Assembly: GCA_963974445.1 (NCBI GenBank)
Contig: CAXBDI010000001.1
Coordinates: 3,566-67,565 of the forward strand
Direction: 5' to 3'
DNA length: 64,000 nt
Origin: an uncultured Alphaproteobacteria bacterium
GTDB lineage: Bacteria > Pseudomonadota > Alphaproteobacteria > Bin95
The position numbers and the translations under genes are program-made. The notes beneath the pieces were generated by a model. That model did not search any database, had not been told where the DNA came from, and saw only the letters and a program-made list of their open reading frames with translations. Positions 3,902 to 63,531 of this stretch are shown piece by piece; the stretch's first letter is position 1, and the number at the start of each line of letters is the position of its first letter.

Positions 3902-5699
3902 TGTCACTGGCAGGGCGGCTCCGCGCCGGGAGTTGAAAAAGCGTTCGACATCGGACGCCAACGTCCGCAAACGCCGAGCCCGGGAACGCCGCTTCCAGGC
4001 CTATGGGGTCGCCGCGCTGGGCTCGGCGATTGCGATGTTGGTGTTTCTGATGGTGACGATCGTCGGCAACGGCTATTCCGCCTTTTTCCAGCATGAGGTG
4101 GCGCTCAACGTCGATATCAACCGGGATCGACTGAACCTCGGTCCGTCGCCGGACGAGGACGCGCTGGCCAGAGCGTCTTATCGGCTGGTGGTCCGCGACG
4201 CCTTGAAAGCCGAGTTCGACACGGTGTCGGGGCGGCGGGAGTTGCGCACGCTCTATGGTTTCGTGTCGAACGGCGCGGATTTCGCAGTGCGCGACGCCGT
4301 ATTGGCCAATCCCGAAATCGTCGGAACCACGCAGCAAATTTGGATTAAGACATCCGACGACATCGACACTCTGCTAAAGGGTCAGATGTCGGATGTGGCG
4401 CGGTGGCAGCCGCAAAGCGCCGCCTCGGTCACCGGCACAACCGGCACTGTCACCATCACGGCGGGCGGCCAGGCTTTTGCGACCGTGCTGGAGCAGGTGA
4501 AAGCCCACTTGCAGGACGTCGCGGACGAACTGGCCGTGCGGCAAGCCCGGCTGGAAAGCATCGTCGAAGACCAGAAGGCCGCGGTTGCGGAGTTGACGCG
4601 CAGCAACTCTAACCCAGAGGAAGCCGCGCGCCTTGTGGGCGACATCGCCGCCAACGAGGCCGCCGCCAAGCAATTATCCGAGAGGATCGCCGGCCTGCGC
4701 CAGCGGGCGGCGGCTGCGGCGGGCAGTGAGGTTTTGGTCGCGGACCTGCCCAGCTATTTGGTGAAGATCAACGGCGGCCTCGTAAAGATCACCGAGGTCT
4801 CGGCTGGCGAGGCCAAGGGCGAGGCGCTGTTGCCGCTTCAACGCGGTACGCCAGCGCCGCAAGGCAGTTGGGAGATCGTGTCCTACCTGACGCCGGAGGC
4901 CGACCGCCGGGTCAAGGACATGGAAATCGCCTGGATCACCAAGCTGCAGGCGGAAGACCGGATCGAAGAGCGCTTCAACATCGCGTTTTTCCAGAACGGC
5001 GACAGCCGCGAGCCGGAGATTGCCGGCATCTGGGGCGCTGTCGTTGGCTCGTTCTTTACCCTGGTCACGACCCTGCTGATCAGCTTTCCAATCGGCGTGC
5101 TGGCGGCCGTCTATCTGGAGGAGTTCGCGCCACGCAACCGCTGGACCGACCTGATCGAGGTGAACATCAACAATCTGGCGGCGGTGCCGTCCATCGTCTT
5201 CGGGCTTTTGGGGCTCGCGGTCTTTCTGAACTTCTTCGGAATGCCGCGTTCGGCGCCGTTGGTCGGCGGCATTGTGCTGGCGCTAATGACCTTGCCGACG
5301 ATTATCATCGCCAGCCGGGCCGCTTTGAAGTCGGTGCCGCCGTCGATCCGGCAGGCGGCTTTGGGTATGGGCGCCTCGCGGCTGCAGACGATTGCGCATC
5401 ATGTGCTGCCGCTCGCGATGCCGGGCATTCTGACCGGTACGATCATCGGCATGGCCCAGGCCTTGGGCGAGACAGCGCCGCTGCTGATGATCGGCATGGT
5501 GGCGTTTATTGTCGATATTCCCGGCGGTTTCACCGATCCTGCAACGGTCATGCCGGTGCAGATTTATCTGTGGGCCGATAGTCCGGAACGCGCCTTCGTT
5601 GCCAAGACCAGTGCGGCGATCATGGTATTGTTGGCCTTCCTGATCGTGATGAATGCTATAGCGGTCGTGCTGCGCAAGCGCTTCGAGAACCGCTGGTAA
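3894..5699 (+). CDS. pstA: Phosphate ABC transporter permease PstA (long form, 601 aa)
   Basis: Start overlaps pstC stop (ATGACTGA); N-terminal TM then ~280-aa charged/coiled-coil insert, C-terminal PstA core (…EEFAPRNRWTDLIEVNINNLAAVPSIVFG…). Confidence 0.85.
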   Translation: MTDVTGRAAPRRELKKRSTSDANVRKRRARERRFQAYGVAALGSAIAMLVFLMVTIVGNGYSAFFQHEVALNVDINRDRLNLGPSPDEDALARASYRLVVRDALKAEFDTVSGRRELRTLYGFVSNGADFAVRDAVLANPEIVGTTQQIWIKTSDDIDTLLKGQMSDVARWQPQSAASVTGTTGTVTITAGGQAFATVLEQVKAHLQDVADELAVRQARLESIVEDQKAAVAELTRSNSNPEEAARLVGDIAANEAAAKQLSERIAGLRQRAAAAAGSEVLVADLPSYLVKINGGLVKITEVSAGEAKGEALLPLQRGTPAPQGSWEIVSYLTPEADRRVKDMEIAWITKLQAEDRIEERFNIAFFQNGDSREPEIAGIWGAVVGSFFTLVTTLLISFPIGVLAAVYLEEFAPRNRWTDLIEVNINNLAAVPSIVFGLLGLAVFLNFFGMPRSAPLVGGIVLALMTLPTIIIASRAALKSVPPSIRQAALGMGASRLQTIAHHVLPLAMPGILTGTIIGMAQALGETAPLLMIGMVAFIVDIPGGFTDPATVMPVQIYLWADSPERAFVAKTSAAIMVLLAFLIVMNAIAVVLRKRFENRW

Positions 5700-6554
5700 A
5701 TGGCGAGGGACTTAGACGTGAACATGACTGAAATGGCTCCGGCAGCCGCCGTCACCGGCAATTCCGACATCAGCCTGCCGATGCCCGAGCCGCTGGCCGC
5801 CCCGAAGGTGATCGCGCGCAAGGTGAATGTTTATTACAGCGGCGTTCAAGCCCTGTTCGATGTCGATCTCGATATCCTGGAACACCAGGTCACCGCGCTC
5901 ATCGGGCCGTCGGGATGCGGCAAGTCGACATTTTTGCGCTGCATCAACCGGATGAACGATGTCATCGACGGCTGTGTGACTGAGGGCGATATCCAATTGG
6001 ATGGCCGCAATATCCTCGCGCCCGGTGAGGATGTGGTGCAGTTGCGCCAGAAGGTCGGCATGGTCTTTCAGAAGCCGAACCCGTTCCCCAAGTCGATCTA
6101 CGAGAATATCGCTTACGGACCGAAGATCCACGGTCTGGCGAACGACAAGGCCGAGTTGGATGAGATCGTCGAGGTCAGCCTGGAGCGGGCCGGACTGTGG
6201 GAAGAGGTCAAGGACCGGCTGAATCAACCCGGCACCGGCCTCTCCGGCGGGCAGCAGCAGCGGCTTTGCATTGCCCGCGCCATCGCGGTCACGCCAGACG
6301 TTGTGCTGATGGACGAGCCCTGTTCCGCGCTCGACCCGATTGCCAGCGCCAAGGTGGAAGAGCTGATCGATGAACTGCGCGAGAAGTTCACCATCGTCAT
6401 CGTGACCCATTCGATGCAACAGGCGGCGCGCGTCTCGCAGCAAACCGCCTTTTTCCATCTTGGGAAACTGGTCGAGGTCGATCAGACCGAAAAGATGTTC
6501 ACCAACCCGACGGACGAGCGCACCCACGGCTACATCACCGGCCGCTTCGGTTGA
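5700..6554 (+). CDS. pstB: Phosphate import ATP-binding protein PstB
   Basis: Walker [10 protein letters not shown], signature LSGGQQQRL, Walker B VVLMDEP; PstB-specific C-terminus. Confidence 0.9.
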
Positions 6555-6621
6555 GGCCTAGCCTGTTGCCGCCGCAACCCATTAGGCTGGGCGGTTGGCT
6601 CTGGCATAGAAGGACGTTGCC

Positions 6622-7332
6622 ATGACACATGAATCTCACATCGTCAAAGCCTACACGGCGGAGATGGCGCAACTGGCGTCAATGATCGCCGAGATGGGCG
6701 GCTACTCCGAAGCGGCGATTGCGGAGGCGGTGCAGGGGCTGCGCCGGCGCGATAGCGCCCAGGCGCTGCGGGTCGTAGAGGGCGACCGGAAAATCGACGC
6801 GCTGGAGGCGCAGATTTCCGCCTTTGTCGTGCGGCTGCTGGCGTTGCGCCAGCCGATGGCGACCGACCTGCGCACCATCGTCGCCAGTCTCAAAACCGCC
6901 AGCGATCTGGAGCGGATCGGCGATTATGCCAAAAACATCGCCAAGCGCAGCCTGGTGTTGAACCGCACGCCGGTGACCGTGCCGATGGCCGGTATCGTCA
7001 ACCTCAGCCGCATGGTGGAGGCGATGCTGCATGACGTGCTGGATGCCTACGTCGCTGGCGACGCGGATGTGGCGGAGCAAATTCGCCTGCGCGACGAGGC
7101 CGTTGACGATGCCCACACCGATCTTTTCAGCGAGTTGATCAATTGCATGGTCGACGACCCGCGAACCATCTCGCCATGCACCCACCTGGTGTTCATCGCC
7201 AAGAACCTGGAGCGCATCGGCGACCACACCACCAATATCGCCGAGAATCTGGTATTCCAGGTGCGCGGCGAGCGCCTGGGCGACCGTCACGCGGCCGAGG
7301 AAGGCGAGACCGGTTTGCGGCTCGACCCATGA
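6622..7332 (+). CDS. phoU: Phosphate-specific transport system accessory protein PhoU
   Basis: 236 aa; two PhoU repeats (…DLERIGDYAKNIA… and …NLERIGDHTTNIAE…). Confidence 0.9.
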   Translation: MTHESHIVKAYTAEMAQLASMIAEMGGYSEAAIAEAVQGLRRRDSAQALRVVEGDRKIDALEAQISAFVVRLLALRQPMATDLRTIVASLKTASDLERIGDYAKNIAKRSLVLNRTPVTVPMAGIVNLSRMVEAMLHDVLDAYVAGDADVAEQIRLRDEAVDDAHTDLFSELINCMVDDPRTISPCTHLVFIAKNLERIGDHTTNIAENLVFQVRGERLGDRHAAEEGETGLRLDP

Positions 7333-7402
7333 TGGTGAGCATGGGGTGCCGCCAATCGACGGCGGGTGCTCCCTTATTGGTTGACTGCGGAGCCGGAGAG
7401 CG

Positions 7403-8113
7403 ATGAAGCCATTCATTCTGATCGTGGAAGACGACCGCCCGATTGTCGAGATGCTGCGATACAATCTGGAAGCCGCGGATTTCGACGTCGGGGTCGCAAT
7501 GGACGGCGACGAGGCGATGCTGGCTGTTGCCGAACGGCTGCCCGACCTGGTGTTGCTGGATTGGATGCTGCCCGGGATGTCCGGTCTGGAGATATGCCGC
7601 CAACTGCGGCGGCGCCGCGAAACGCGATCTCTGCCGGTTATCATGCTGACGGCGCGCGGCGAGGAGGTGGACCGGGTGCGCGGTTTGGAAAGTGGCGCCG
7701 ACGATTATGTCGTCAAGCCGTTCTCCCCCGGCGAGGTCGTGGCACGGGTGAGAGCGGTGATCCGCCGGGCGCATCCGGAGACCGATGCGGAGCAGTTGGC
7801 GTTTGCCGATGTCGAGATGGACCTGCTGTCCCATCGCGTACAACGTGCAGGGCGCAACCTGCACCTTGGCCCGACAGAGTTCCGGTTGTTACGCCATTTG
7901 ATGGAGCACCCGGGCCGTGTTTATTCGCGAGAACAACTTTTAGATGCAGTCTGGGGGCATAATGTTTACGTCGAATCCCGCACCGTCGACGTGCATATCC
8001 GAAGGCTTCGCAAGGCGTTAAATGCGGGTGGTGGCGCCGATCTAATCCGCACCGTCCGCTCTGCCGGCTATTCGCTAGACGATACTGATCCGCCCGGACG
8101 AACAAATGATTAA
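7403..8113 (+). CDS. phoB: Phosphate regulon response regulator PhoB (OmpR family)
   Basis: Receiver domain with DDxxIxE…LLDWMLPGMSG…; winged-helix C-terminus (…ESRTVDVHIRRLRKAL…); follows phoU. Confidence 0.9.
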   Translation: MKPFILIVEDDRPIVEMLRYNLEAADFDVGVAMDGDEAMLAVAERLPDLVLLDWMLPGMSGLEICRQLRRRRETRSLPVIMLTARGEEVDRVRGLESGADDYVVKPFSPGEVVARVRAVIRRAHPETDAEQLAFADVEMDLLSHRVQRAGRNLHLGPTEFRLLRHLMEHPGRVYSREQLLDAVWGHNVYVESRTVDVHIRRLRKALNAGGGADLIRTVRSAGYSLDDTDPPGRTND

Positions 8114-8579
8114 GGCATCCGTTCCGGCCTGGACAGGCGCCCTCGGTCGGGTCAAAAGAGGGCAGAATTCGGACGAGCGGGAAATCCACGGAGCCTGTGG
8201 ATAAGCCTGTCGACAACCGCCTGTGAACAAGCCTAAACCCGCAGAAACCTTTGGCTTTAACCATATTGCCTAAATTGTAGGCAATTCACGCTAACTGTCT
8301 GAAATAAAATGAGTTTTTTGTGACGGCAATGTTTCTGTGGAAGACGCTTGGCGACGCAGCGCGGATAAAAGGCTTGTGCAACCGACGTGTGTAAAACTTG
8401 TCGAGGCTCTCGCCCAAATTCATCGAATTAGCGGTGCGCCCTGGCGTCGTTGAGCGGCAGGAATCCGACGCTAGACGACGCAGCGTCGGTATGCGTCCCG
8501 CAGCGTATATCCAGACTTTTCGGCTAGCCGCTGAAGCTTCGATAGGCCGTCTGCGATGCGCCTCAGGACCACTACGGGG

Positions 8580-11998: not shown

Positions 11999-13213
11999 CT
12001 AGCGGAACAGCGCCAGGATGTTCTGCGGCGCCTGGTTGGCGATGGAGAACGACTGGATGCCCAACTGCTGCTGCACCTGCAGCGACTGCAGCCGAGCCGA
12101 CGCTTCCTGAAGGTCGGCATCGACCAGCGCGCCGATACCGTTGTTCAGGTTGGCGATCAGCGAGGTGACGAAGTCGTTCTGGATTTCCAGACGGCTCTCG
12201 CCCTGGCCGAACACGGCGGCTGCATCGACGGCGGTGTTGATCAGCCCCTCGATATCGGTTAGCGCCGTATTGGCACCAGCCTCGGTCGAAACGTCGATCG
12301 AACTGAGCCCACCCAGACCGCCGCCGGCCGTGCCGCCGGATGTGCCGGTTTCGGCCAGCAAGGTAACGGCGTTGGTGGCATTGTTGTTGGTGAAGGTAAT
12401 GACGGCCGAATCGGTTGTCACGTCAGCGGCAGGCGCCAGCGTGAACGCGAAATCGGTGATGCCGAGGCCATCGAGTTGCGTCTGCAACTGTGTGGCGACG
12501 GTATTGATCGTGTCGCCATCGCGGGCGACGTAGGCCACGGAATACGCTGTAGCGTTGTAGGTAAAGCCGACCTGGAACCCGTCGCCTTCATCGACCGCGG
12601 AAACGCTGCCGTCGAGGGTGATAGTCTGCGTGCCGCCAGCCGCCGCGACGCCTGTGCCGCCGACAGCGGTGATGGCGGGATCGGCGCCGGTGCCCAGCGC
12701 CTGAACCGATGTCTGCAGGTCCTGTTTGGCGACTGAAATTTTGTTGGCGGTGACCGAACCATCCGCGGCGCGGTCGAGTGACGCCAGGACATCGACCTCG
12801 CCGCCGCCCTTGATCAGGTTCAGACCGTTGAACTGGGCTGCGTTGACGATGGAGACGATTTGGTTGCGGAGTTGCGCGATGTCGTCCTGAATGACAGAAC
12901 GATCGACGTTGTCTTCCTGTGACTTGACGATCCGGCCTTTGATGTCGACCAGCAGATCGGATATGGCCTCGGTCGCGCTGCGGGCCACGGCGACCGTGGA
13001 GGAGCCGAGCGCCAGGGTCTCGCTGATGGCGCGGAAGCCCGAAACGTCGGACTTCATGATCGTGGTGATGGAGAACACCGCGGCGTCGTCCTTGGCCGTC
13101 GCGACTTTCTTACCGGTGGAGATCTGATCCTGGACCTGGCCCAGGTTTTTGTTGATGCTGCGCAACGTCTGCAGGGCAGTCGTTGCAGCAGTGTTAGTCA
13201 ATACGCTAGCCAT
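11999..13213 (-). CDS. Flagellin
   Basis: 404 aa; conserved N-terminal (MASVLTNTAATTALQTLRSINKNLGQVQDQISTGKKV) and C-terminal (…LQSLQVQQQLGIQSFSIANQAPQNILALFR) flagellin domains with variable central region. Confidence 0.9.
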   Translation of the reverse strand: MASVLTNTAATTALQTLRSINKNLGQVQDQISTGKKVATAKDDAAVFSITTIMKSDVSGFRAISETLALGSSTVAVARSATEAISDLLVDIKGRIVKSQEDNVDRSVIQDDIAQLRNQIVSIVNAAQFNGLNLIKGGGEVDVLASLDRAADGSVTANKISVAKQDLQTSVQALGTGADPAITAVGGTGVAAAGGTQTITLDGSVSAVDEGDGFQVGFTYNATAYSVAYVARDGDTINTVATQLQTQLDGLGITDFAFTLAPAADVTTDSAVITFTNNNATNAVTLLAETGTSGGTAGGGLGGLSSIDVSTEAGANTALTDIEGLINTAVDAAAVFGQGESRLEIQNDFVTSLIANLNNGIGALVDADLQEASARLQSLQVQQQLGIQSFSIANQAPQNILALFR

Positions 13214-31488: not shown

Positions 31489-31562
31489 TGGAGGCGCGAA
31501 CCGGAATCGAACCGGTGTACGAGGATTTGCAGTCCTCTGCATCACCACTCTGCCATCGCGCC
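31489..31562 (-). tRNA. tRNA-Cys (GCA)
   Basis: Reverse complement folds as GGCGCGA/TCGCGCC acceptor, short D-arm, anticodon stem GAGGA/TCCTC with loop CTGCAAA (anticodon GCA), T-arm ACCGG-TTCGATT-CCGGT, discriminator U, encoded CCA. Confidence 0.85.
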
Positions 31563-52285: not shown

Positions 52286-53506
52286 GTGACTCAAATCGCA
52301 CCTCCGCAAGGCCCCATGAAGGGCGTTCGCGTCGTCGACCTGACCACCGTCATGTTCGGCCCCTACTGTACACAGATCCTGGGTGAGATGGGGGCCGACA
52401 TTATCAAGGTCGAGGGGCCGGAAGGCGATATCTCGCGCCAGGTCGGCGCGTCGCGCAGCCCGACCATGTCCGCGGCGTTCCTGATCAAAGGCCGCAACAA
52501 GCGCAGCCTCGTACTCGACCTGAAGCAGGAGGCGGCGCGGGACGCGCTCTATAAGCTCTGCGCGACCGCCGACGTCTTCATCCACAACATGCGGCCCAAA
52601 GCCGCCGCCCGCCTCGGCATCGCCTATGAGGACATCGCCCGCGCCCGGCCCGACATCGTCTACTGCAACGCCATCGGCTTCGGGCCGGAGGGGCCCTATG
52701 CGGACAAGCCGGCTTATGACGACCTGATTCAGGGCCTGTCTGGCCTCGCAGCCCTCACCGGCATGGTAACGGGTGAGCCGCGGTTCGCGCCGTCGGTGGT
52801 CGCCGACAAGACCAGCGGCCTGTTTGCGCTCTATTCGATCTGCATGGGCCTGTTCCATCGCGAGCGCACCGGCGAGGGCCAGCGCATCGACGTGCCGATG
52901 TTCGAGACCTTCGCCAGCTTCGTCATCAACGAGCATATGCAGGAGCGCTTCTTCGTGCCGCCGAAGGGCGAGGCCGGCTATGTGCGGCTACTGTCGCCCT
53001 ACCGCCGGCCGCACAAGACCGCGGATGGCTATATCTGCATGATGCCGTATTCGACCAAGCACTGGGTCGCCTTCTTCAATCTGGCCGGGCGCCCGGATTT
53101 GGCGGCGGACGAGCGCTTCCAGACCATGCCGGGGCGCACCAAAAATATCGGCGAACTGTATCAGCACCTCTCGGAGATCATGCCTACCCGCACCACCGCC
53201 GACTGGCTGGAAGTGCTGGCGGAGGCGGACGTGCCGTCCGCGCCGATGAACACGCCGGAAGACCTGTTCACCGACCCGCACCTGACCGCCGTCGGCATGT
53301 TCCCGGAAAGCGAGCACCCGAGCGAGGGCAGGGTGCGGCATATCAAGGTGCCGGTGACCTTCTCGAAAACGCCCGGCGGCCTGTCCCGCCACGCGCCCCG
53401 GCTGGGCGAGCACAGCCTCGAACTGCTGCGCGAGGCCGGACTTTCCGAAGACGAGATCGAGGATTTAGTCGCAAAACGGGCCACGAGCCAAGCGAACGCC
53501 TCGTAG
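52286..53506 (+). CDS. Family III CoA-transferase (CaiB/BaiF/Frc family)
   Basis: ORF from 52118; GTG 52286 after GAGGA gives MTQIAPPQGPMKGVRVVDLTTVMFGPYCTQILGEMGADIIKVE…, the canonical family-III N-terminus; alternative ATG 52316. Confidence 0.8.
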   Translation: MTQIAPPQGPMKGVRVVDLTTVMFGPYCTQILGEMGADIIKVEGPEGDISRQVGASRSPTMSAAFLIKGRNKRSLVLDLKQEAARDALYKLCATADVFIHNMRPKAAARLGIAYEDIARARPDIVYCNAIGFGPEGPYADKPAYDDLIQGLSGLAALTGMVTGEPRFAPSVVADKTSGLFALYSICMGLFHRERTGEGQRIDVPMFETFASFVINEHMQERFFVPPKGEAGYVRLLSPYRRPHKTADGYICMMPYSTKHWVAFFNLAGRPDLAADERFQTMPGRTKNIGELYQHLSEIMPTRTTADWLEVLAEADVPSAPMNTPEDLFTDPHLTAVGMFPESEHPSEGRVRHIKVPVTFSKTPGGLSRHAPRLGEHSLELLREAGLSEDEIEDLVAKRATSQANAS

Positions 53507-53578
53507 CACTTAGATGCTTTCGGCGTTGCGTGGCATTACAATGTGCGGGTTGGCAATGTGCGGCTTGCGATGACCTAA

Positions 53579-53613
53579 GCCAAAAAAACCAAAGTCACAG
53601 TGCGATTGTGACC
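53579..53613 (-). terminator. Rho-independent terminator for the PRC-barrel gene
   Basis: Minus strand reads GTCACAATCGCACTGTGAC hairpin followed by TTTGGTTTTTTTGG, 60 nt downstream of the gene's stop. Confidence 0.5.
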
Positions 53614-53678
53614 TTGGCCTTATCCTGCGGCCCGGGCGGCACGACACTGCCCGGACCGCAAAGCTTTGGATGCGTCGG

Positions 53679-54311
53679 CTACTGGTTTGCAGGCGCGCCC
53701 GAGCGCGGCGGAACAGGGTTGGCGCCCGTTCCCGTGTTTTGCCGGGCAGCGTTGCGCGCGCGCTCCGCTTCCTGCTCGCTCTTTATCGCTTCGACCGTGC
53801 GAAATTCCGGCATTTGCTTGAGTTCGTCAGCAGTCGCTGCAATATGGAGGGTCATACTGCCTTCGGAAGATTCCCGTTTCATGCTCTCCCATGGCAATCC
53901 GACCTGCTTACTGCCGATGCCGAGAAAGCCGCCCACCGACACGACTACGCTCTCAACCTTGCCATCTTTGTCAATTGCCAGATTTTTGACATTGCCAACC
54001 GCTTCGCCTTGATCGTTCACGACGCTCGATCCGATCAAGTCTCCGGCCAGAAACTGGCTAGGCCGCTGTTCGGTTACCGGCTGTACAGAGGCCGTTCCGG
54101 TCATGCCCGGCGTACCCGCTTTGCCAGCACCTACGTCCTTTTGGTCAGGCATCGCAGGCGTTTGCTTATCAGACTCCATTTGGCCCTGCGGGGCGGATTT
54201 ATTTTGAAGCTCTTGATCTGTCGCTTTTTCATTCTGAGCATACGCAGGCAGCGCAAGGCCCAGAGCGAGAGCCAAAGCAGAAGTCGTTGTTATTTTCTGA
54301 AGAGAGGTCAT
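53679..54311 (-). CDS. PRC-barrel domain protein, secreted
   Basis: 210 aa; signal peptide MTSLQKITTTSALALALGLALPAYA; …LAGDLIGSSVVNDQGEAVGNVKNLAIDKDGKVESVVVSVGGFLGIGSKQV… is a PRC-barrel motif; lower GC than neighbours. Confidence 0.6.
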   Translation of the reverse strand: MTSLQKITTTSALALALGLALPAYAQNEKATDQELQNKSAPQGQMESDKQTPAMPDQKDVGAGKAGTPGMTGTASVQPVTEQRPSQFLAGDLIGSSVVNDQGEAVGNVKNLAIDKDGKVESVVVSVGGFLGIGSKQVGLPWESMKRESSEGSMTLHIAATADELKQMPEFRTVEAIKSEQEAERARNAARQNTGTGANPVPPRSGAPANQ

Positions 54312-54871
54312 GACATCACTCCTGTTATGTTAGCCGCTCTACCCGCACATTTTGCGCGGTGCAGGCGGCCACCGGTCGCAAGATTGATCCGAGCAACCGT
54401 GGTAGCAGGTTACATCGTGAGACCGAAAACGCGTTTCAAGATAAGAAAATTAAAATGAAACAGAACTCGTCGCGTGGGTCTTTGGCCGCTATCGCCACTA
54501 CCTCACCTGCCGCAACCGTGTGGTCGATGTAGCCCGCTTTGGCATCCCGGCCGAGGCCGCGGTTGGCTTCGCCTGCATCGCACCCGCCAATCCTTCCTCT
54601 ATCGCGGAGGGATGGCGAGCGCCTTTCCGTCAGCATTCCCGCATTTCCCCGGACTTGAACCGGTATCCACGTCGAGAGGCGATGCCAAGCTGGCGATCTT
54701 TGCCTGAGCCCTGACAGACCGCGCCCTCTGCGGACGGTTGCTTGATTTGCATCAGTGTGCCCCTATCGCCGGCTGTGCGAGACTGGCGGCTGTCCCAAGC
54801 TACTGAATCCCAGTGGTTCGAACCATTCGGATGGTCGCGGTTCGTTGTGCGACCCTCATCATCTCTCCTGG

Positions 54872-54955
54872 CGTCATTGCGAGCCGACGGCGAAGCAACC
54901 CAGGAAATATTGCAACCGGCACAAGCGTTTATCTGGGTTGCTTCGTCGCCTGCGG
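54872..54955. repeat. Degenerate copy of a Bradyrhizobiaceae-type palindromic intergenic repeat (GTCATTGCGAGC…GAAGCAA…CCAG hairpin)
   Basis: GTCATTGCGAGCCGACGGCGAAGCAACCCAG – 29-nt loop – CTGGGTTGCTTCGTCGCC…GATGAC; 13-bp perfect inner stem; lies in a 734-bp non-coding gap. Confidence 0.45.
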
Positions 54956-55045
54956 CTCCTCTCGATGACGGCGGTGGCGTGTCGGCGACGATTCGGATAA
55001 GGACTCATTATGTTTCGCTCGCACCACTAGGCTAGAGCCGCAACC

Positions 55046-56392
55046 ATGACGCAACCGTCACCGGAAACGACGATCCAGGTTTCGCGCCAGCGCTTCAAGC
55101 TGCGGGTTTGGATCACCAGTCGACTTTGGGCGCAGGTCGTGGCCGGCATGGTGCTGGGCTTCGGCCTCGGCTTGCTGTTGAGCGACAGCACCGGCCTGAT
55201 ATCGCCGAAAATGGCGGAGCTGATCGGCCTCTGGCTGGCCTTGCCCGGCCAGATTTTTCTGGCCCTGATCGCCATGGTGCTGGTGCCGCTGATCTTCTCC
55301 TCGATCATTGGCGGCCTGAACGGCGCCGGCTCCGGCGCCGAATTGCGGGCGGTTGGGCTGCGGCTCGCCGGGTTTATCCTGATGACCACCGGCGCCGCTG
55401 CAGCCTCTGGCGTTGTCCTGGCGAAGTGGTTACAGCCGGGCGCGGCCTTGCGCACCTTCGCCAGCACCACGGTCACGCCGCCCGCCAATGGCGTCGCCGA
55501 GGGTCCGCCGGTCGAGGAGACGGTGCGTACTCTGCCAGACCTGATCGCCAACGTGCTGCCGACCAACCCCACCGCCTCCATCGTCCAAGGCGACATGCTG
55601 GCGGTGGTTGTGTTGGCGCTGTTGGTCGGTGTTTCCATCACGCAAATCGACCGCAGGCGCGCCGAGCCATTTCTGGCGTTGATGGACGCGTTTTTGTCGA
55701 TCTCGATGAATATCGTCAAATGGGCGATGTTCCTGGCGCCGTTCGCGGTCTTCGGCCTGATGGCGCAGTTGGTGATGCGCATCGGCTTCGAGACGCTGAT
55801 CGGCATTTCCGGCTATGTCGGAACCGTATTGCTGGGCCTGGGCCTGCTGTTCGTTCTGTATCTGGCGGTTGTCTGGCTGCTCGCCCGGGTCAGTCCGATG
55901 CAGTTCGCAGACGCGGCGGCCGGCAATCTGTTGCTGGCATTTTCGACCTCCAGTTCGTCCGCGGTGATGCCGGTCACCATCCAGACATCGCGCCGGCTGG
56001 GCGTGCCGGAGAGCATCGCCAACCTGGTCATTCCGCTTGGTGCGACGATGAACATGGCCGGCACCGCGCTCTACCAGGCGGTCGCCATTCTGTTCCTGGC
56101 GCAATTGGCGGGGGTGGAACTGACGACGACGCAAACTCTGGTGGTCACCGGCACACTGGTGGCCTCAAGCATCGGCGCGCCCGGCACGCCCGGCGTCAGC
56201 ATCGCCATCCTGATCAGCGTCGCCACCAGCATGAATATCCCGGTGGAGGGGATGGTCATCATCCTCGGCGTCGACCGGCTGCTGGACATGTGCCGCACCG
56301 TGGTCAACGTCACTGGCGATCTGGTGGCCGCGGTGCTGTTGCGCGATACCGCGGCGGTCGCCGACGATGGTGCGGTATCGACACACCCTTAA
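55046..56392 (+). CDS. Dicarboxylate/amino acid:cation symporter (DAACS family)
   Basis: 448 aa; 8+ TM helices and DAACS signature region (…AFSTSSSSAVMPVT…, …IPLGATMNMAGTALYQAVAILFLAQ…). Confidence 0.85.
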   Translation: MTQPSPETTIQVSRQRFKLRVWITSRLWAQVVAGMVLGFGLGLLLSDSTGLISPKMAELIGLWLALPGQIFLALIAMVLVPLIFSSIIGGLNGAGSGAELRAVGLRLAGFILMTTGAAAASGVVLAKWLQPGAALRTFASTTVTPPANGVAEGPPVEETVRTLPDLIANVLPTNPTASIVQGDMLAVVVLALLVGVSITQIDRRRAEPFLALMDAFLSISMNIVKWAMFLAPFAVFGLMAQLVMRIGFETLIGISGYVGTVLLGLGLLFVLYLAVVWLLARVSPMQFADAAAGNLLLAFSTSSSSAVMPVTIQTSRRLGVPESIANLVIPLGATMNMAGTALYQAVAILFLAQLAGVELTTTQTLVVTGTLVASSIGAPGTPGVSIAILISVATSMNIPVEGMVIILGVDRLLDMCRTVVNVTGDLVAAVLLRDTAAVADDGAVSTHP

Positions 56393-56601
56393 TAAGATCA
56401 ACCAGTTACAGATGCGACTGGTTTCTCGATAGTCCGGATGTGCAACAGAAAATATCGCAATCAAGAGGCTGGAGCCCAAAAGCACTCCCATATTGACGCC
56501 TGTCATTATCAGACAGATTGTATGTGTTACAAACTGGCGCGCTGCCAAATGTTCGTCCCAGAGTATCTCTGCCGTATACGGGAATCGAAAGAGTGAGGGA
56601 T

Positions 56602-57366
56602 ATGGTCAATTTCTCCGGTCAATCTGTAACGAACATCATACCAAAAGAAAAGAGTACGGCGTTAGTTCAAAAGTTAGGCGGTCTTGTATCGTTATCGGAG
56701 AAAGAAATCTCGTTTCTGAAGAGCTTGCAGCGCAATACATTCAGTGTAGAAAAAGGCGGTGAGTTCATCCGTGATGGGGAAACATGGGATAAAACTTTCA
56801 TCCTTCAGAAGGGTTGGGCGATCCGATACGTCATTCTCAGTTCGGGTCGGCGGCAAATTTTGGGATTTGTACTGCCCGGCGATATTCTGGGCCTCCACAT
56901 CAATTTTTGCAGGACAGCATCGTATTCTGCCTCAGCCCTGACGCCCATCCAACTCGCGGTAGTGGACCCGGCCGGGATAATGGAGATTTGCGAGAAATAC
57001 CCGCTCCTCGGCGCCGGCCTCAACTGGTGTACCGCGCGCGAGTTCGCGATTCTGGGCGATCACGCGGTGCGGCTCGGACGCATGTCCGCGCTGGAGCGTC
57101 TGGCGCATCTCTTCTTGGAGCTTTGGTATCGAGCCGATTTGGTCGGGGAGATAAAGGGCGATTGGATGGCGCTACCGATGACTCAGGAAGATCTGGCGGA
57201 TACACTGGGGCTTAGTTTGGTCCATCTGAATCGGACACTCCGCAAAATGCGGCATGAGAATTTGATATCTCTCGTGAAGCATCATGTCAGATTAAATAAC
57301 ATCGAAAAATTAATGTCCATGACTGAATTCAATACGAGCCATTTAGAGGAATTTAGCACATCATAG
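56602..57366 (+). CDS. Crp/Fnr-family transcriptional regulator
   Basis: ORF from 56518; ATG 56602 after GAGGGA; cNMP-binding-like domain then HTH (…QEDLADTLGLSLVHLNRTLRKM…); AT-rich 5' half. Confidence 0.8.
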   Translation: MVNFSGQSVTNIIPKEKSTALVQKLGGLVSLSEKEISFLKSLQRNTFSVEKGGEFIRDGETWDKTFILQKGWAIRYVILSSGRRQILGFVLPGDILGLHINFCRTASYSASALTPIQLAVVDPAGIMEICEKYPLLGAGLNWCTAREFAILGDHAVRLGRMSALERLAHLFLELWYRADLVGEIKGDWMALPMTQEDLADTLGLSLVHLNRTLRKMRHENLISLVKHHVRLNNIEKLMSMTEFNTSHLEEFSTS

Positions 57367-57371
57367 CCAGA

Positions 57372-57620
57372 TCATTTAAGTTTTACAGAATTTCCATTCA
57401 CCATAAGAATTTTTAATTTTTCGGCAACCCTCTTGTTTATTATGTCGCCGTAATCGCAGTAGGCGGTTTGGTGGGCGTCGATGGCGGCATAAAAAGCTTC
57501 ATCGACCTCATCGCCGGACAAAACGCCTTTTTCCATGAGTTGCAGCAGCAGCGCTTCGACCAAACTGAGCGCACTGATTCCAGCGACCGCTGCATCCGCG
57601 CCGGTATCCGACTTGATCAT
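57372..57620 (-). CDS. Small hypothetical protein (82 aa), convergent with the Crp/Fnr gene
   Basis: ORF to 57671; ATG 57620 with GGAGG at -6 (MIKSDTGADAAVAGISALSLVEALLLQLMEKGVL…); acidic, helical; no recognised domain; low GC. Confidence 0.4.
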   Translation of the reverse strand: MIKSDTGADAAVAGISALSLVEALLLQLMEKGVLSGDEVDEAFYAAIDAHQTAYCDYGDIINKRVAEKLKILMVNGNSVKLK

Positions 57621-58075
57621 TCCTAACCTCCAATAAGGCCTGCGACCGCCCACCAACTTAACGGTCAACACGCGTGATGATAATTGGTTCCATCGGTCGT
57701 GAAAAGTACCTTCAATTAATCAAAAGAACTCATAACAGTTTACGGTGACACTCCATTCAGCGCCCGGGCGTTGATGATAATCATTCTAAGAACGCAAGGT
57801 GCCGGTATGGCGCGTGGTTTGGCCGGTTCGTTCGAAGCATTTGCTTTTGCCGCCGCATGGCCACAGTGATGGCGACCGTAACGTGTCCTCGCCGCAAACT
57901 CTGGGCCTCGTGTGCCTTGAAAAGCCAACTTGGGGAGGTGTGGGCCATTTTGCACCTTGGCTTTTCGGGCGCAAATGAGGGCGCGCCCGCAGCTTCGCTG
58001 TTGCAATACGCCCTCATTGACTCGCCGAACGGGGTTGATGTTGTCCAACGCCGGCCGTGCAGGAACAGGCAGCGC

Positions 58076-58861
58076 TTACTTGCCCTTCCAGTTCGGCGCA
58101 CGCTTCTCGGCGAAGGCTTTCGGACCTTCGATATAGTCTTCCGATTCGCCCATCGCCTTGTAGGCCGGATAGGCGACCTGGTTGCGGATGGCGTTGGCGA
58201 CTGATGTCTCGTCGAGCCCCATATAGACGCCCTGTTTCGACGCGCGGATCGACATCGGCGAGCATTCCAGGATGGTCTTGGCCCAGCGTTTCGCAGCCTC
58301 TAAGGCCTGGCCGGTCGGCACGACCTCGTTGACGAAGCCCAACTCCTTACCTTCCGCAGCCGAGACGCGGCGGCCGGTCAGGATCATGCCCATTGCCTGC
58401 TTCAGCGGAATGTGACGCGGCAGGCGGTGGATGCCGCCCGCGCCGGCGGCGAGGCCGACCCGCGGCTCCGGCAGGGCGAAGGTAGCGTTTTCCGCCGCGA
58501 TAATCAGATCGCAGGCCAGCGCGGTCTCGAAGCCGCCGCCCATGGCCCAGCCGTTAACGGCGGCGATGATCGGCTTGGTCTGGTCATAGCGGTTGGTGAT
58601 ACCGGCAAAGCCACTGTCCGGGCGATGGCGCGGGCCGCCCGCCGCCTGGTACTTCAGATCGTTGCCGGCGGAGAACGCCTTGTCGCCCGCGCCGGTGATG
58701 ATGGCGATCCACTGCTCCGGGTCGTCGCGGAAGTCGGTGAAAACCCGGTCGAACTCCCAATGCGCCGGCGGATGCAGGGCGTTGTAGACCTCCGGCCGGT
58801 TGATCGTGACGATGGTGAGCGGCCCGTCGCGCTCGACTTTCAGGAACTCGTTCTTGGCCAT
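58076..58861 (-). CDS. Enoyl-CoA hydratase/isomerase (crotonase family)
   Basis: ORF to 59032 but first 57 codons Arg-rich; from MAKNEFLKVERDGPLTIVTINRPEVYNAL…, 261 aa with crotonase oxyanion motifs (…AVNGWAMGGGFETALACD…); start coordinate ±1. Confidence 0.85.
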   Translation of the reverse strand: MAKNEFLKVERDGPLTIVTINRPEVYNALHPPAHWEFDRVFTDFRDDPEQWIAIITGAGDKAFSAGNDLKYQAAGGPRHRPDSGFAGITNRYDQTKPIIAAVNGWAMGGGFETALACDLIIAAENATFALPEPRVGLAAGAGGIHRLPRHIPLKQAMGMILTGRRVSAAEGKELGFVNEVVPTGQALEAAKRWAKTILECSPMSIRASKQGVYMGLDETSVANAIRNQVAYPAYKAMGESEDYIEGPKAFAEKRAPNWKGK

Positions 58862-58941
58862 GCGGCGTATCCTCCGGTTATTCGCTTGAGATGAGGCCCA
58901 TGGTGCCGCGCTTTCGGCCCGGCGGCAACGGTGTCTGAACC

Positions 58942-60288
58942 TTATGCCCGCTCGACGCTGCGCAGCAACCTGGGCCAGAACAGCCAGAGCGTGACGCCTC
59001 GCAATGAAAAGAAGAACAGCAGGCAGAGCCAAAGCCCGTCATTGCCGCCGCCCCAACGCTCGACAAGCCAGAGCGACAGGAGGTAGGCCGCAAAGCTCAT
59101 CAGCATCGCGTGCCGCATCAGCCGGTTTTGGGTTGCGCCCAGAAAGACGCCATCCATGACGAACGCGACGAAGGACACCAGCGGGAACGCGACTGCATAG
59201 GGCAGGTACTCCAGGGCCAGCGCCTGCACCTCCGGGATGCCGGTCAGCAGTTGAATGCCCAGCCAGCCGAGCCCGCCCCAGGCCACTGCCAGCACCAGCG
59301 CGATACCCAGCGACCAGCGGAGCGCGGCGAAGGTAGCGGCTCTGACCCTATCGCGATTGCGCTCGCCATAGGCCGTACCGACTAGCGCCTCCGCCGCGTG
59401 GGCGAAGCCGTCCATGGCGTAGGTGCCGATCATCACCATCTGGTAGAGCACCTGGTTCGCCGCCAGCGCCACATCGCCCTGCATGGCGCTCTTGTTGATG
59501 AAGATCGCCAGGCCGGTGATCAGGACCAGGGTGCGGATGAAGATATCGCGGTTGACCGCCATCATCCGCTTGATGCGCGTCCAGTCGAGCACACGGGTGC
59601 GGCCGTGGCCGGAAGGCATCTGCGCCAACCTTCGGCGCACATAGTAGAACGCCACGGCGATGGCGGCGTATTCGGCGATGACGGTGGCGGCGGCGACCCC
59701 CTCCACACCCCAGCCGAAGCCGAGGACGAACACCAGGTCGAGCGTGATGTTCAGGCCGTTCGAGAACAGTTGCAGATAGAGCGGGATCCGCCCGTCCTCC
59801 AGCCCATAGAACCAGCCGATGGCGACGAACATGGCCAGCGCCGCCGGCGCGCTCCACAGCCGGATCGCCAGATAGGCGGCGGTCTGCGTCTCCACCGCCT
59901 CGCTGCCGCCCAGCGCCCAAAGGCCGGTGCTGACGATCGGACCCTGCAAGACGACGATCGCCAGGCCCAGCACTCCGGCGAGCAGCAGGGCGCGCGCCAG
60001 GATGTTGCGCACCTCGCCCCAACCGGGCCCCTCGGCCAGGCCGCGGCCCACCCCAACCGCCTGCGCCGTCGGCCCGGTGGTGCCCATGCGCAGGAAGTTC
60101 AGGCTGGCGTGCACATAGGTGTAGATGACGGTGCCCAGTGCTACGCCGCCCAGAAACGCTGGGTCCGGCAGGTGCCCGACCACGGCAGTATCCACCGCCC
60201 CCAGCAGCGGCACGGTGGCGTTGGAGACAATGATCGGCAGCGCCATCCGCCTGAGACGGCGGTCGGTGGAGGCTTCGGCAAGGCTCAT
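58942..60288 (-). CDS. MATE-family efflux transporter
   Basis: 448 aa, 12 predicted TM helices, MatE repeats (…LPIIVSNATVPLLGAVDTAVVGHL…). Confidence 0.8.
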   Translation of the reverse strand: MSLAEASTDRRLRRMALPIIVSNATVPLLGAVDTAVVGHLPDPAFLGGVALGTVIYTYVHASLNFLRMGTTGPTAQAVGVGRGLAEGPGWGEVRNILARALLLAGVLGLAIVVLQGPIVSTGLWALGGSEAVETQTAAYLAIRLWSAPAALAMFVAIGWFYGLEDGRIPLYLQLFSNGLNITLDLVFVLGFGWGVEGVAAATVIAEYAAIAVAFYYVRRRLAQMPSGHGRTRVLDWTRIKRMMAVNRDIFIRTLVLITGLAIFINKSAMQGDVALAANQVLYQMVMIGTYAMDGFAHAAEALVGTAYGERNRDRVRAATFAALRWSLGIALVLAVAWGGLGWLGIQLLTGIPEVQALALEYLPYAVAFPLVSFVAFVMDGVFLGATQNRLMRHAMLMSFAAYLLSLWLVERWGGGNDGLWLCLLFFFSLRGVTLWLFWPRLLRSVERA

Positions 60289-60573: not shown

Positions 60574-61372
60574 CAGAGCCTGATTCGAAACTAACCAAAC
60601 GTTTTCAACTTCTTGAGAGATGGCGGGTGACGCGTCGGATGTGGGCGATGAGCATCCAGGCTTGGGCACTCGCGATGGATTGTTCCCAATCCTTTGACAG
60701 GCGGCGACAGCTTCCAGCACATCCGGCGCGCCGTCACGATCCTGAATACCGGCGCTGTGGACCTCGAGGCCGACGAGCAATCCGATCGTGTCGGTCACGA
60801 TATGGCGCTTGCGCTCCTTGATCCTCTTGCCCCGTTGCCCGACAAGCGAATGGAACATTCGCTGAGAGGGGCGTCATACCCCCTAACTCCCCCACTTTCC
60901 GTGGTTTTGACGCTCTGGCTGTCGATGATACCCGCCGTCGGCTGAGCTTTGCGCCCGGCGGCCAGACGCGCCGCCTCGACAAGCTTGCGGTTCATCTCAT
61001 CGAGCAGGCCGTCATTGCGCCAAGCGCAAAAATAGCCCCGGACCGTGGAGACCGGCGGGAAGTCGTTGGGCAACATGCGCCATTGGCAACCGGTTGTCGC
61101 GATGTAGAGAACCGCGTCCAACACGTCACGCAAACGCGTCGTGCACGGCCTACCGGTTGTCTTGCGCAGGGGCATCGGGCATCAAGGGTTCAATCAGCGC
61201 CCATTCCTCATCGGTCAAATCACTTGCGTATTTGTCGTCTACTCGGTCCTGTTGGCGGCGGGTGAGTTCAGTCCAGGCCGTGGGGATCTCCGTTCAGCTT
61301 TACAACCAAACTGAATCACAACCTGCTGAACTCACTCAAATAGTTTTAAATCAGGCTCTAAGAGAGCCGCTA
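60574..61372 (-). mobile_element. IS5-family (IS427/IS1031-like) insertion sequence remnant, ~0.8 kb, transposase disrupted
   Basis: Imperfect terminal IRs AGAGCCTGATTCGAAACTA (left) and TAGTTTTAAATCAGGCTCT (right, reverse complement). Transposase fragments in three frames: …(T)AWTELTRRQQDRVDDKYASDLTDEEWALIEPLMP (ACG where ATG is expected), then MPLRKTTGRPCTTRLRDVLDAVLYIATTGCQWRMLPNDFPP…IIDSQSVKT…, then …[35 protein letters not shown]…, and a C-terminal …[33 protein letters not shown] joined out of frame. Confidence 0.6.
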
Positions 61373-61603
61373 TCGCTCAAATCTCTGTCTCACAAAACTG
61401 TACACCGGGGGAGTGTGAGAGACACCGATGATGGTCTCGAAAAGCTAGCTCAGGTGACCGAATGGCGGGATAGCAGCGTCTTCTCCCCTGCTGAGCATGT
61501 GGCGCTCGAACTGGCAGCCGCGGTTGCATTCGAGAACTTTCGCAGCAAGTTCAATCCCGTATTCGGGATCGAATCACAAGGGATGTGCCTTTTGCCGGAC
61601 TGA
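61373..61603 (+). pseudogene. C-terminal fragment of a carboxymuconolactone decarboxylase (AhpD/CMD)-family gene abutting the IS
   Basis: …GLEKLAQVTEWRDSSVFSPAEHVALELAAAVAF… matches the CMD-family mid/C-terminal helix pattern (GE..RL..L..WRE…FS..E.AAL.LAEAVT); N-terminal catalytic CxxCxxxH part missing; begins at the IS right IR. Confidence 0.35.
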
Positions 61604-62298: not shown

Positions 62299-63531
62299 AT
62301 GAAAACTTTGCACCGTCGGCCGGTGCTTATCATCACGGTGCTATCGCTTGGCTTATTTCTGAGCCAGGTCGCCATTATGGCCGTGCCTGCGGTAATCGTT
62401 GAATTGGCCAGCCAATGGTCGCTCAATGCCGCACAGATCGGATGGTTAGGAGGCATCTATTTCGCTGGGTACGCAACCGGACTGCCGTTTGTTTCCGGCG
62501 CTGCAAATCGGGTCGACGGTCGGGCGGTCTATGCGGTTTCGGCGGTGATTGCGGCATTGGCATCCTTTGCCTTCGCTGTCATCGCAACTGAATTTTGGTC
62601 GGCCGTTGTCTTGCGGTTCATTGCTGGTATCGGTTTTTCCGGCATTCACGTCCTTGGCATGAAGCTTATGGTTGACCGACTGGAAGGTTCCACCAAGGCT
62701 CGGGCCGCCGGGCTCTATAGCGCGGCCTATGCAACCGGGACGGCCGGGTCATACCTGATCGCCGGGATGCTCAGCGGCGCGTATCGGTGGCAAGCTGCTT
62801 TTGTGGCGGCTGGAGCCGGGGCGATACTGTCACTACCTCTTCTGATGTTGATCGGTGCCCCGCTCGAAGGGAACGAGATACGATCGAGCCGCTGGTTCCC
62901 TGATTTTCGGGCGGCAATGAAGAACCCGGAAGTCGTCCGCTATGTTATTGCTTATGCGGGCAACACCTGGGAAGTTTTTGCGATCCGGGTGTGGTTCATC
63001 CCTTTTCTTGCATTCAGCGCTGGGTTGCACGGTGACACGGCATCAAGTTTAGAACCAACTGTCCTGGCTGGTATTTCAGTATTAATCTCTGTTCCCGTCA
63101 ATATTTTCTTTTCCGAATTGGCTCTTCGCTTCGGGTCCGAGAAAATTGTGCGCCTTGTTTCGCTTTCATCAGTCTGCGTTGGCTTAATATTGGGATGGCT
63201 TGCAGCAGGCCCATACGCTCTCGTTCTCATCCTGCTCTTGATCCACGGCGCAACCAGCTTTGGCGATGCAGGAACGATCAATGGCGGCGTGGTCGCAGCA
63301 TCGACGCCGGACAATCGCGCCGCGGTGCTGGCCCTGTTTAACCTGTTCGGTTTCGTCAGCGGGTTTCTCGGACCGTTTGCCGTAGGGCTGGCCTTGCGCA
63401 GCGCAGGTGGCCAGACAGATGCATCGGCGTGGTTTTGGGCCTTCGCGGTGATGGCCGCGGGTTCGGTGGTTTCGGCAGCCGCCATGAGAAAACGAAGGCG
63501 AACTCTGCCTACGCGACGAGGGTCTGTATGA
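62299..63531 (+). CDS. MFS transporter
   Basis: 410 aa, 12 predicted TM helices, MFS-like motifs; follows thioesterase remnant. Confidence 0.8.
   Translation: MKTLHRRPVLIITVLSLGLFLSQVAIMAVPAVIVELASQWSLNAAQIGWLGGIYFAGYATGLPFVSGAANRVDGRAVYAVSAVIAALASFAFAVIATEFWSAVVLRFIAGIGFSGIHVLGMKLMVDRLEGSTKARAAGLYSAAYATGTAGSYLIAGMLSGAYRWQAAFVAAGAGAILSLPLLMLIGAPLEGNEIRSSRWFPDFRAAMKNPEVVRYVIAYAGNTWEVFAIRVWFIPFLAFSAGLHGDTASSLEPTVLAGISVLISVPVNIFFSELALRFGSEKIVRLVSLSSVCVGLILGWLAAGPYALVLILLLIHGATSFGDAGTINGGVVAASTPDNRAAVLALFNLFGFVSGFLGPFAVGLALRSAGGQTDASAWFWAFAVMAAGSVVSAAAMRKRRRTLPTRRGSV

Follow-up and report, generated by a model that had tools for sequence, protein, structure and literature searches.

The subject of this analysis is a pair of convergent genes in a 64,000-nucleotide (nt) stretch of contig CAXBDI010000001.1 from an uncultured Alphaproteobacteria bacterium, hereafter the window. 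One gene encodes a Crp/Fnr-type regulator and the other an acidic protein of 82 residues, here termed S82. The stop codons of the two genes are separated by only 5 nt, and the pair lies between a symporter gene and an enoyl-CoA hydratase (ECH) gene in the following arrangement, given with strand and length in amino acids (aa):

55046-56392, forward strand: gene for a dicarboxylate/amino-acid symporter of the SDF family
56393-58072, no strand: non-homologous insert, from the SDF stop to the ECH stop, delimited by blastn against the relatives L014 and L019; its AT-rich part is 56393-57800
56602-57366, forward strand: gene for the Crp/Fnr regulator, 254 aa, with PF00027 and PF13545 above cut-off
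57372-57620, reverse strand: small open reading frame (S82), 82 aa, with a GGAGG ribosome-binding site and a net charge of about -4
57667-57691, reverse strand: putative sigma-EcfG-type promoter GGAAC-N16-TGTT, with 46 nt between the end of its -10 element and the S82 ATG
58076-58870, reverse strand: ECH gene
58942-60288, reverse strand: gene for a MatE exporter

The initial annotation described the small reading frame as convergent with the regulator gene, acidic, helical, preceded by a strong ribosome-binding site and free of recognisable domains, and the present results agree on each point. S82 has no relative in Pfam, NCBIfam or the PDB, Pfam scans of 117 family members return scattered chance matches only, and the AlphaFold2 model is a three-helix bundle (pLDDT, the predicted local distance difference test, 80.4) with helices at residues 7-30, 36-52 and 59-75. 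A word-indexed search with the protein retrieves itself only. An exhaustive phmmer search against 1.84 billion representatives identifies 27 relatives, with E-values down to 2e-17, and the profile derived from these relatives collects 1358 clusters at 90% identity, all 75-105 residues long and all labelled 'hypothetical'. The window protein matches this profile with an hmmsearch E-value of 3e-30, although it is itself part of the profile alignment and the independent support is that of the phmmer matches. A metagenome scan with a narrower alignment yields 3 loci. The initial annotation had considered the case of a small reading frame that is not conserved; what was found is a large conserved family, and by its sequence S82 is a member of a widespread, unannotated alphaproteobacterial family rather than an orphan. 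The family extends over Rhodobacterales, Hyphomicrobiales and Azospirillum, is often plasmid-borne beside chaperonin, Na+/H+ antiporter and desaturase genes, and has the consensus AALS(I/L)(C/L)E(S/A)LLL..L.(D/E).. (I/V)L...E......AA..H ... GNSVR. In the 117-sequence alignment A17, E22 and H50 are invariant, while Cys 21 and His 62 are conserved in most members and both absent from the subgroup to which the window protein belongs. A Sneathiella-like genome (L100, 2818-3528, and L099, 3311-4018, both reverse strand) carries a weak homologue of the S82 domain (E-value 2e-10) divergent from a Crp gene; the domain shares its frame with a gene for dodecin, a flavin-binding protein, and no stop codon intervenes, so that this is either a fusion or a missed stop.

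The regulator is, by its domain content, a member of the Crp/Fnr superfamily, yet it is not FNR, FixK or CRP. The cyclic nucleotide-binding domain (cNMP_binding, PF00027) scores 44.9 bits over residues 48-133 against a cut-off of 27.5, the helix-turn-helix domain HTH_Crp_2 (PF13545) scores 59.3 against 27, and PF00325 scores 24.2 against 21. The NCBIfam models for FixK (74.4 versus 300), FnrL (60 versus 300), Fnr (PRK11161; 50.9 versus 228) and CRP (15.4 versus 266) all remain far below their cut-offs. The first 100 residues contain no Cys, and the FNR Cys cluster has no counterparts in an alignment with E. coli FNR. The nearest solved structure is FixK2 (4i2o, E-value 2e-16). The recognition helix reads LSLVHLNRTL (V-H-L-N-R; H-x-x-N-R) where FNR has VETISRLL (E-x-x-S-R), and the C-terminal tail EFNxxHL corresponds to the clade form (D/E)F(D/N)xxYL. 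The missing Cys cluster, the VHxNR helix and the C-terminal tail are common to every Crp found adjoining an S82 homologue, and in the segment LADTLGLSLVHLNRTL and the tail the window regulator is the same as all partner Crps. Alignment places it within the alphaproteobacterial VHxNR clade of S82-partner Crps. It displays the tripeptide R-T-A, which its clade relatives in the alignment lack, the arginine that binds the cNMP phosphate not being conserved across the clade. The closest relatives of the regulator, 59-63% identical, come from marine Rhodobacterales and metagenome-assembled genomes.

A Crp gene of the VHxNR clade adjoins the S82 gene in 17 of the 17 other sites with a readable neighbourhood, and is intact in 15 of them. 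The initial annotation had suggested a regulator with a cognate small protein and had named co-occurrence with Crp/Fnr genes as the check; this constant Crp neighbour supports the suggestion at the level of the family. Tandem pairs, in which the small gene precedes the Crp gene, are found in L088-L091. The pairs are divergent in Frigidibacter albus (L092), Aquisalinus flavus (L093) and L094/L095, and similarly in ten plasmid loci (L101-L106 and L110-L113) hosted by Phaeobacter, Roseibium, Paracoccus, Maritalea, Cereibacter, Azospirillum sp. B510, Pseudosulfitobacter, Ruegeria, Roseovarius and Alloyangia. Two of these plasmid loci have a decayed Crp gene, frameshifted in Maritalea and reduced to a remnant in Cereibacter. 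The cargo 3' of the small gene varies, comprising GroES/GroEL (twice), NhaA (twice), a fatty-acid desaturase (twice) and YflT/DnaJ, while the Crp neighbour is constant. The pairwise identities of the small proteins correlate with those of their neighbouring regulators (r = 0.90, Mantel p ~5e-4). Divergent-type modules also contain a third conserved gene, of 62-65 aa and convergent with the Crp gene, whose product reads MTPEQNKT..KM.SVKAAWDKAP.GPKKDAALKHYQAAEKA... (L093, 3789-3986; L094, 3835-4026; L101 and L103, 1369-1557; L104, 1361-1549; L111, 845-1033; L112, 866-1054); the window holds no homologue of it.

Upstream of the S82 gene, the -35 element GGAAC and the 16-nt spacer fit the sigma-EcfG form, which has a spacer of 16-17 nt and the consensus GGAAC-N16/17-CGTT (PMC5869019; bioRxiv 10.1101/641647). 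In the tandem loci L088, L089 and L091, and also in L107, which carries the closest S82 homologue, the coding strand has perfect GGAAC-N16-CGTT sites ahead of the small gene, with the -10 element ending 65, 162, 159 and 47 nt before the ATG, respectively. Against a background of about 1 perfect site per 64 kb over both strands, chance can hardly account for such a site within 200 nt in all four loci. The window promoter, at 46 nt, matches the L107 site in position. In addition, L088 contains a divergent gene for an extracytoplasmic function (ECF) sigma factor with a PhyR_sigma2 match, and L098, the locus of one of the nearest relatives of the window regulator, contains three perfect EcfG sites in the vicinity of genes for PRC-barrel and entericidin proteins. 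Around the small-gene/Crp operon of L091, five perfect GGAAC-N16/17-CGTT sites occur within about 4 kb (4441-8507), which suggests a dense cluster of general-stress genes.

The pair occupies a stretch of distinctly foreign composition. GC content over 56393-57800 is 0.488 against a window mean of 0.635 (standard deviation 0.032 in 1400-nt windows), about 4.6 standard deviations below, making this the lowest-GC 1.4-kb stretch of the whole 64 kb; minima of 0.375-0.385 in 200-nt windows are reached at 57201-57500. GC at third codon positions (GC3) falls to 0.588 for the regulator gene and 0.542 for the S82 gene, compared with 0.844 (SDF), 0.853 (ECH) and 0.878 (MatE) in the flanks. The drop that the initial annotation placed at about 56.4-57.8 kb is thus confirmed; the non-homologous insert is longer than its interval of 56400-57760. 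It had stressed the 5' half of the regulator gene; that end is indeed AT-rich, but not alone, as codons 1-85 and 171-255 both have about 0.45 GC and codons 86-170 have 0.61. This middle third (56857-57111) is host-like also in GC3 (0.72), which could reflect either mosaicism or uneven amelioration.

Homology to L014, a 5.16-Mb alphaproteobacterial chromosome, and to L019 stops at 56352/56375 and restarts at 58072/58083. Both relatives retain the backbone, namely the CoA-transferase, SDF (73% aa identity), ECH (89%) and MatE (81-82%) genes, and both have three unrelated high-GC genes at the insert site, with neither a Crp gene nor the small reading frame. In L014 these are reading frames of 216 aa and 263 aa and a 209-aa methyltransferase-like one (assigned from sequence only), all of normal GC. 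Identical copies of the locus come exclusively from marine assemblies of Tara Oceans and Logan, apparently from one species. In 15 other hosts the equivalent module differs from its flanks in GC by -0.055 to +0.022, as against -0.15 here, so AT-richness is not intrinsic to the module and acquisition from a lower-GC donor is supported. The horizontal acquisition proposed in the initial annotation is borne out by this comparison together with the foreign composition and the different gene content of L014 and L019: 56393-58072 is supported as a horizontally acquired insert at a plastic spot between the SDF and ECH genes. L107 is a short contig of a closer relative, whose ECH has about 92% protein identity and 85% DNA identity to that of the window. 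Its ECH gene is followed by a 313-bp spacer of 49% GC and then by an S82 homologue, 59% identical to the window protein and encoded by a gene of 52% GC. Either, therefore, the site was already occupied when these lineages parted and its content has diverged rapidly, or insertion took place there twice.

A separate RNA element was considered for the 226-nt ECH-S82 spacer and rejected: because its folding is no better than that of shuffled sequences (z = -0.68), no such element is claimed. The normal-GC part of this spacer contains two hairpins, GAAAAGCCAA/TTGGCTTTTC at 57919-57966 and AATGAGGGCG/CGCCCTCATT at 57974-58018, both with perfect 10-bp stems and loops of 25-28 nt.

We give about even credence to the reading that the locus is an acquired two-gene module, consisting of a Crp-clade regulator and a stress-promoted S82 that binds and modulates the Crp dimer. 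The S82 gene would be read from the sigma-EcfG-type promoter, and its expression would therefore be induced through the general stress response of Alphaproteobacteria. The S82 protein would then bind the Crp-type dimer and alter its activity as a co-regulator or anti-regulator, and the Crp regulon would thereby be coupled to stress, akin to the small NepR gene preceding ecfG. The sequences themselves establish the composition, the exchanged gene content of the relatives, the family membership, the constant Crp neighbour, the promoter motifs and, in favour of this reading too, the CTGAT-N4-ATCAG operator kept in divergent pairs. We infer both the direct contact between S82 and the regulator and the identity of the regulator's target genes; sigma-EcfG presumably uses the TGTT variant present in the window. 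Most likely, S82 acts on, or is at least co-regulated with, the Crp-type regulator under general stress control. A broader proposal is offered tentatively, as possible but less than probable: the S82 family would comprise dedicated anti- or co-activators of one Crp/Fnr clade, forming an unrecognised, mobile output branch of the alphaproteobacterial general stress response that brings variable stress cargo (GroES/EL, NhaA, fatty-acid desaturase) along on plasmids and islets, and in which partner-switch-like control is exerted on a Crp-type DNA binder and not on a sigma factor.

Several observations weigh against a modulating S82-Crp module at this locus. The correlation between the two protein trees could arise from joint inheritance alone. 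The window pair is convergent, while the other pairs are tandem or divergent. The four closest Crp homologues (59-63% identity; L096, L098, L108 and L109) have no S82 member within the DNA available. The window S82 is nearest to the tandem type (L089 and L091; 0.42-0.48 identity) and its Crp is farthest from theirs (0.26), a discordance by which the window pair may be a re-assorted combination. No fusion of S82 and Crp domains was seen by eye among the longer Crp homologues (276-334 aa). As to the promoter, the window -10 element TGTT matches the consensus CGTT at three of four positions, the relaxed motif is not enriched (4 sites in the window versus 2.6 expected), and ecfG, phyR, nepR and ECF sigma genes are all absent from the 64-kb window. 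With respect to acquisition, no integrase, tRNA target or flanking direct repeat was found at the insert borders, and a search at the Rfam gathering threshold detects a single tRNA only, far from the interval at 31492-31562.

A serious rival, which we nevertheless hold to be rather improbable, is the plain regulator-target relationship. S82 would then be only a conserved target or stress effector of the adjacent Crp regulator, would exert no modulation and would act elsewhere, for example through its conserved Cys, Glu and two His residues; the regulator would bind an operator in the shared promoter and turn on the small gene together with its downstream cargo. The divergent loci have the classic arrangement of a local regulator, with one palindromic operator at a fixed position. 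CTGAT-N4-ATCAG, a putative operator of FNR geometry, is found with at most one mismatch in 9 of 13 divergent spacers, centred 88-101 nt before the small gene ATG (0.04 of 13 in shuffles), and two more divergent spacers carry the variant CTGCT-N4-GTTAG at the same position. Upstream of the tandem-type small genes, a search for a shared 5-4-5 palindrome turns up no half-site in common. The small gene also heads operons with stress cargo, its stop codon being overlapped by the desaturase start in Ruegeria (L111), and the 117-sequence alignment shows little or no variation at C21, E22, H50 and H62. In contrast, the tandem loci place the small gene before the regulator in one unit, behind a sigma-EcfG promoter rather than a Crp operator. 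Moreover, the window's own subgroup lacks the Cys and the second His, and across the family the cargo changes while the Crp neighbour does not.

It is unlikely that the two window genes are unrelated neighbours, that is, a free-standing general-stress gene and an independent Crp gene linked at most by mutual transcriptional interference. Such a chance association would account for the closest Crp homologues without an S82 neighbour, for the discordant similarities and for the convergent layout with its 5-nt gap, in which no intrinsic terminator is found on either strand. Stress-induced S82 transcription could conceivably run antisense into the regulator gene. In L107 the small gene likewise comes after ECH, on a contig too short to reveal any Crp gene beyond it. 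Against mere proximity, every other examinable S82 member has a VHxNR-clade Crp neighbour, which makes a chance landing beside a Crp gene improbable, and the two window genes are alike in their foreign composition (GC3 0.54 and 0.59) and lie within common insert borders. Both stop codons are bracketed by an inverted repeat of 11 nt without mismatch, CGAAAAATTAA/TTAATTTTTCG at 57303-57313 and 57413-57423; it gives T-runs 47 and 59 nt past the respective genes, neither with a convincing preceding hairpin.

Three short motifs lie upstream of the regulator gene or of its SDF neighbour:

54742-54755, no strand: FNR-type box TTGATTTGCATCAG, matching both TTGAT-N4-ATCAA and CTGAT-N4-ATCAG at 9 of 10 positions
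56493-56506, forward strand: candidate self-site TTGACGCCTGTCAT of the initial annotation, 96-109 nt before the regulator ATG
56519-56533, no strand: inverted repeat TTGTA-N5-TACAA, bottom strand GTAACACATAC

The initial annotation located TTGACGCCTGTCAT about 100 bp upstream of the regulator gene and read it as a self-site. The element is present at that distance, but it is not conserved upstream of the four closest Crp homologues. It overlaps a hairpin, CTGTCATTATCAGACAG, at 56500-56516, and its pattern TTGA-N6-TCA, which carries little information and is weak as a statistic, occurs 10 times in the window versus 4.4 expected. The same four homologues all display another palindrome upstream of the start codon, TAACATATGTTA (L096, ~3960-3975; L098, ~3940-3955; L108, ~1437-1452; L109, ~1075-1090, as TAACGTATGTTA). 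It has the 5-4-5 geometry with a half-site different from that of CTGAT-N4-ATCAG. The palindrome has no match anywhere in the window at up to two mismatches, and GTAACACATAC keeps one half of it only. The box TTGATTTGCATCAG falls in a spacer of 730 bp and lower GC that separates the SDF gene from the PRC-barrel gene, outside the interval of the initial annotation; boxes of this FNR type number three only in the 64 kb, and TTGATTTGCATCAG is a possible target of the adjacent regulator.

Upstream of the S82 gene, a repeated 10-mer and a larger box are distinguished:

57675-57684, no strand: TGATGATAAT copy 1, inside the spacer of the EcfG-type promoter
57770-57788, no strand: operator-like box GTTGATGATAATCATTCTA, 19 bp, centred 157 nt upstream of the S82 ATG
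57772-57781, no strand: TGATGATAAT copy 2, the core of the 57770-57788 box

Both TGATGATAAT copies noted in the initial annotation exist, 97 bp apart instead of about 110 bp, and its near-palindrome TCAATTAATCAA is present at 57712-57723. A 10-mer in two copies is marginal as a statistic, and the copies are better read as one element in the EcfG-type spacer and one in a 19-bp Fur/FNR-like box; a protein placed on copy 1 would occlude the EcfG-type promoter. The box GTTGATGATAATCATTCTA agrees with the Fur box GATAATGATAATCATTATC at 15 of 19 positions, the best match of the window and one that none of 300 local shuffles reaches, the consensus being that of E. coli and possibly not that of the host. 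Its bases 57771-57784 also agree with all but one of the 10 positions of the FNR/FixK box TTGAT-N4-ATCAA, and an FNR-like match arises in 4% of shuffles. An Irr ICE-box at 57774-57790 was rejected, as 50% of shuffles match equally well. The 19-bp box is not conserved in L107, and alignment of the upstream regions of the window and L107 reveals no reliable homology; they share only the 11-mer AATCATTCTAA, in opposite orientation. On this evidence the S82 gene might be iron-regulated, with a Fur-type operator at 57770-57788 and a second Fur hexamer site at the TGATGATAAT copy in the promoter spacer, so that Fur would repress the stress promoter at high iron. Iron control is compatible with any other reading of the pair and draws on the Fur match and the paired TGATGATAAT copies; we consider it a distinctly long shot, given that the box is not conserved in L107 and that the same bases match the FNR box at 9 of 10. 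Many Alphaproteobacteria, moreover, use Irr, RirA or Mur and not a classical Fur box. For the Crp-type regulator, 57771-57784 and 54742-54755 are the candidate target sites.

Finally, it is very improbable that the AT-rich stretch is ancestral and held AT-rich by function (promoter and operator density, or nucleoid-protein binding) rather than foreign: the low-GC S82 homologue and spacer at the same site in L107 and the borders free of mobility signatures agree with such an origin, but GC3 falls from about 0.85 to 0.54-0.59 inside coding sequence, a drop beyond the reach of regulatory constraints acting on spacers, other genes occupy the spot in L014 and L019, and 15 other hosts have the module without AT-richness.

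The surroundings of the insert are variable as well. The SDF gene borders a second variable spot at its opposite end (53463-55040), comprising a PRC-barrel gene (53679-54311, reverse strand) and a long spacer, and measures 1.58 kb in the window versus 0.83 kb in L014; in L019 a PRC-like segment (12939-13140) sits between the SDF and ECH genes instead. Beyond the MatE gene, where the synteny with L014 and L019 ends, a 126-aa DUF4096 fragment (60795-61175, reverse strand), the N-terminal part of an IS5-type transposase, is the nearest transposase remnant, 2.7 kb from the insert, and is followed by low-GC patches of 0.47-0.49 at 61200-61500 and 62900-63200.

Among known arrangements, the locus resembles a genomic islet in its sharp shift of GC and GC3 and in the replacement of other content at a conserved backbone junction, and differs from one in lacking an integrase, a tRNA target and a flanking direct repeat. 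The regulator shares with FixK2 and FNR the order of domains, consisting of a cNMP-like beta-barrel, a dimerisation helix and a C-terminal helix-turn-helix, and the CTGAT-N4-ATCAG site of the module's relatives has the 5-4-5 geometry of the FNR/FixK box TTGAT-N4-ATCAA. In contrast, it lacks the N-terminal Cys cluster and displays the H-x-x-N-R helix and the extra C-terminal (D/E)F(D/N)xxYL tail. FixK and FNR are not known to have a dedicated neighbouring small protein, and a literature search for a small partner of Crp/Fnr proteins, or for a Crp gene in EcfG regulons, returned nothing relevant, the pairing not being described there.

Crp/Fnr regulators are usually seen as controlled by ligand, Fe-S cluster or haem, and a linked small protein would add an input at the protein level. 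The main precedent is PipX, a protein of about 89 residues that binds the dimer of the Crp/Fnr-superfamily member NtcA in cyanobacteria and modulates its activation (PMC11850224). PipX-NtcA thus illustrates how S82 is proposed to work, as a functional analogy and not as a relative. S82 is a predicted three-helix bundle, apparently unlike the known PipX structure, and has no sequence similarity to PipX. The pipX gene is not known to be a constant neighbour of ntcA, whereas S82 adjoins a Crp gene in all 17 other sites examined. The S82 family may also account for the way in which transferable stress-tolerance cassettes are connected to the general stress response of their hosts; its culturable carriers include Phaeobacter, Paracoccus, Cereibacter, Roseovarius and Azospirillum sp. 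B510. A parallel in layout is the nepR-ecfG operon of the alphaproteobacterial general stress response. The module differs from that system in that the regulator is a Crp-type DNA binder and not a sigma factor, S82 is unlike any annotated family, and the window genes are convergent. Yet in L088, L089 and L091, as in nepR-ecfG, the gene for a small helical protein lies directly upstream of the regulator gene behind a GGAAC-N16/17-CGTT promoter, and the window S82 gene appears to have a promoter of the same type, a likeness that suggests analogy of function rather than kinship.

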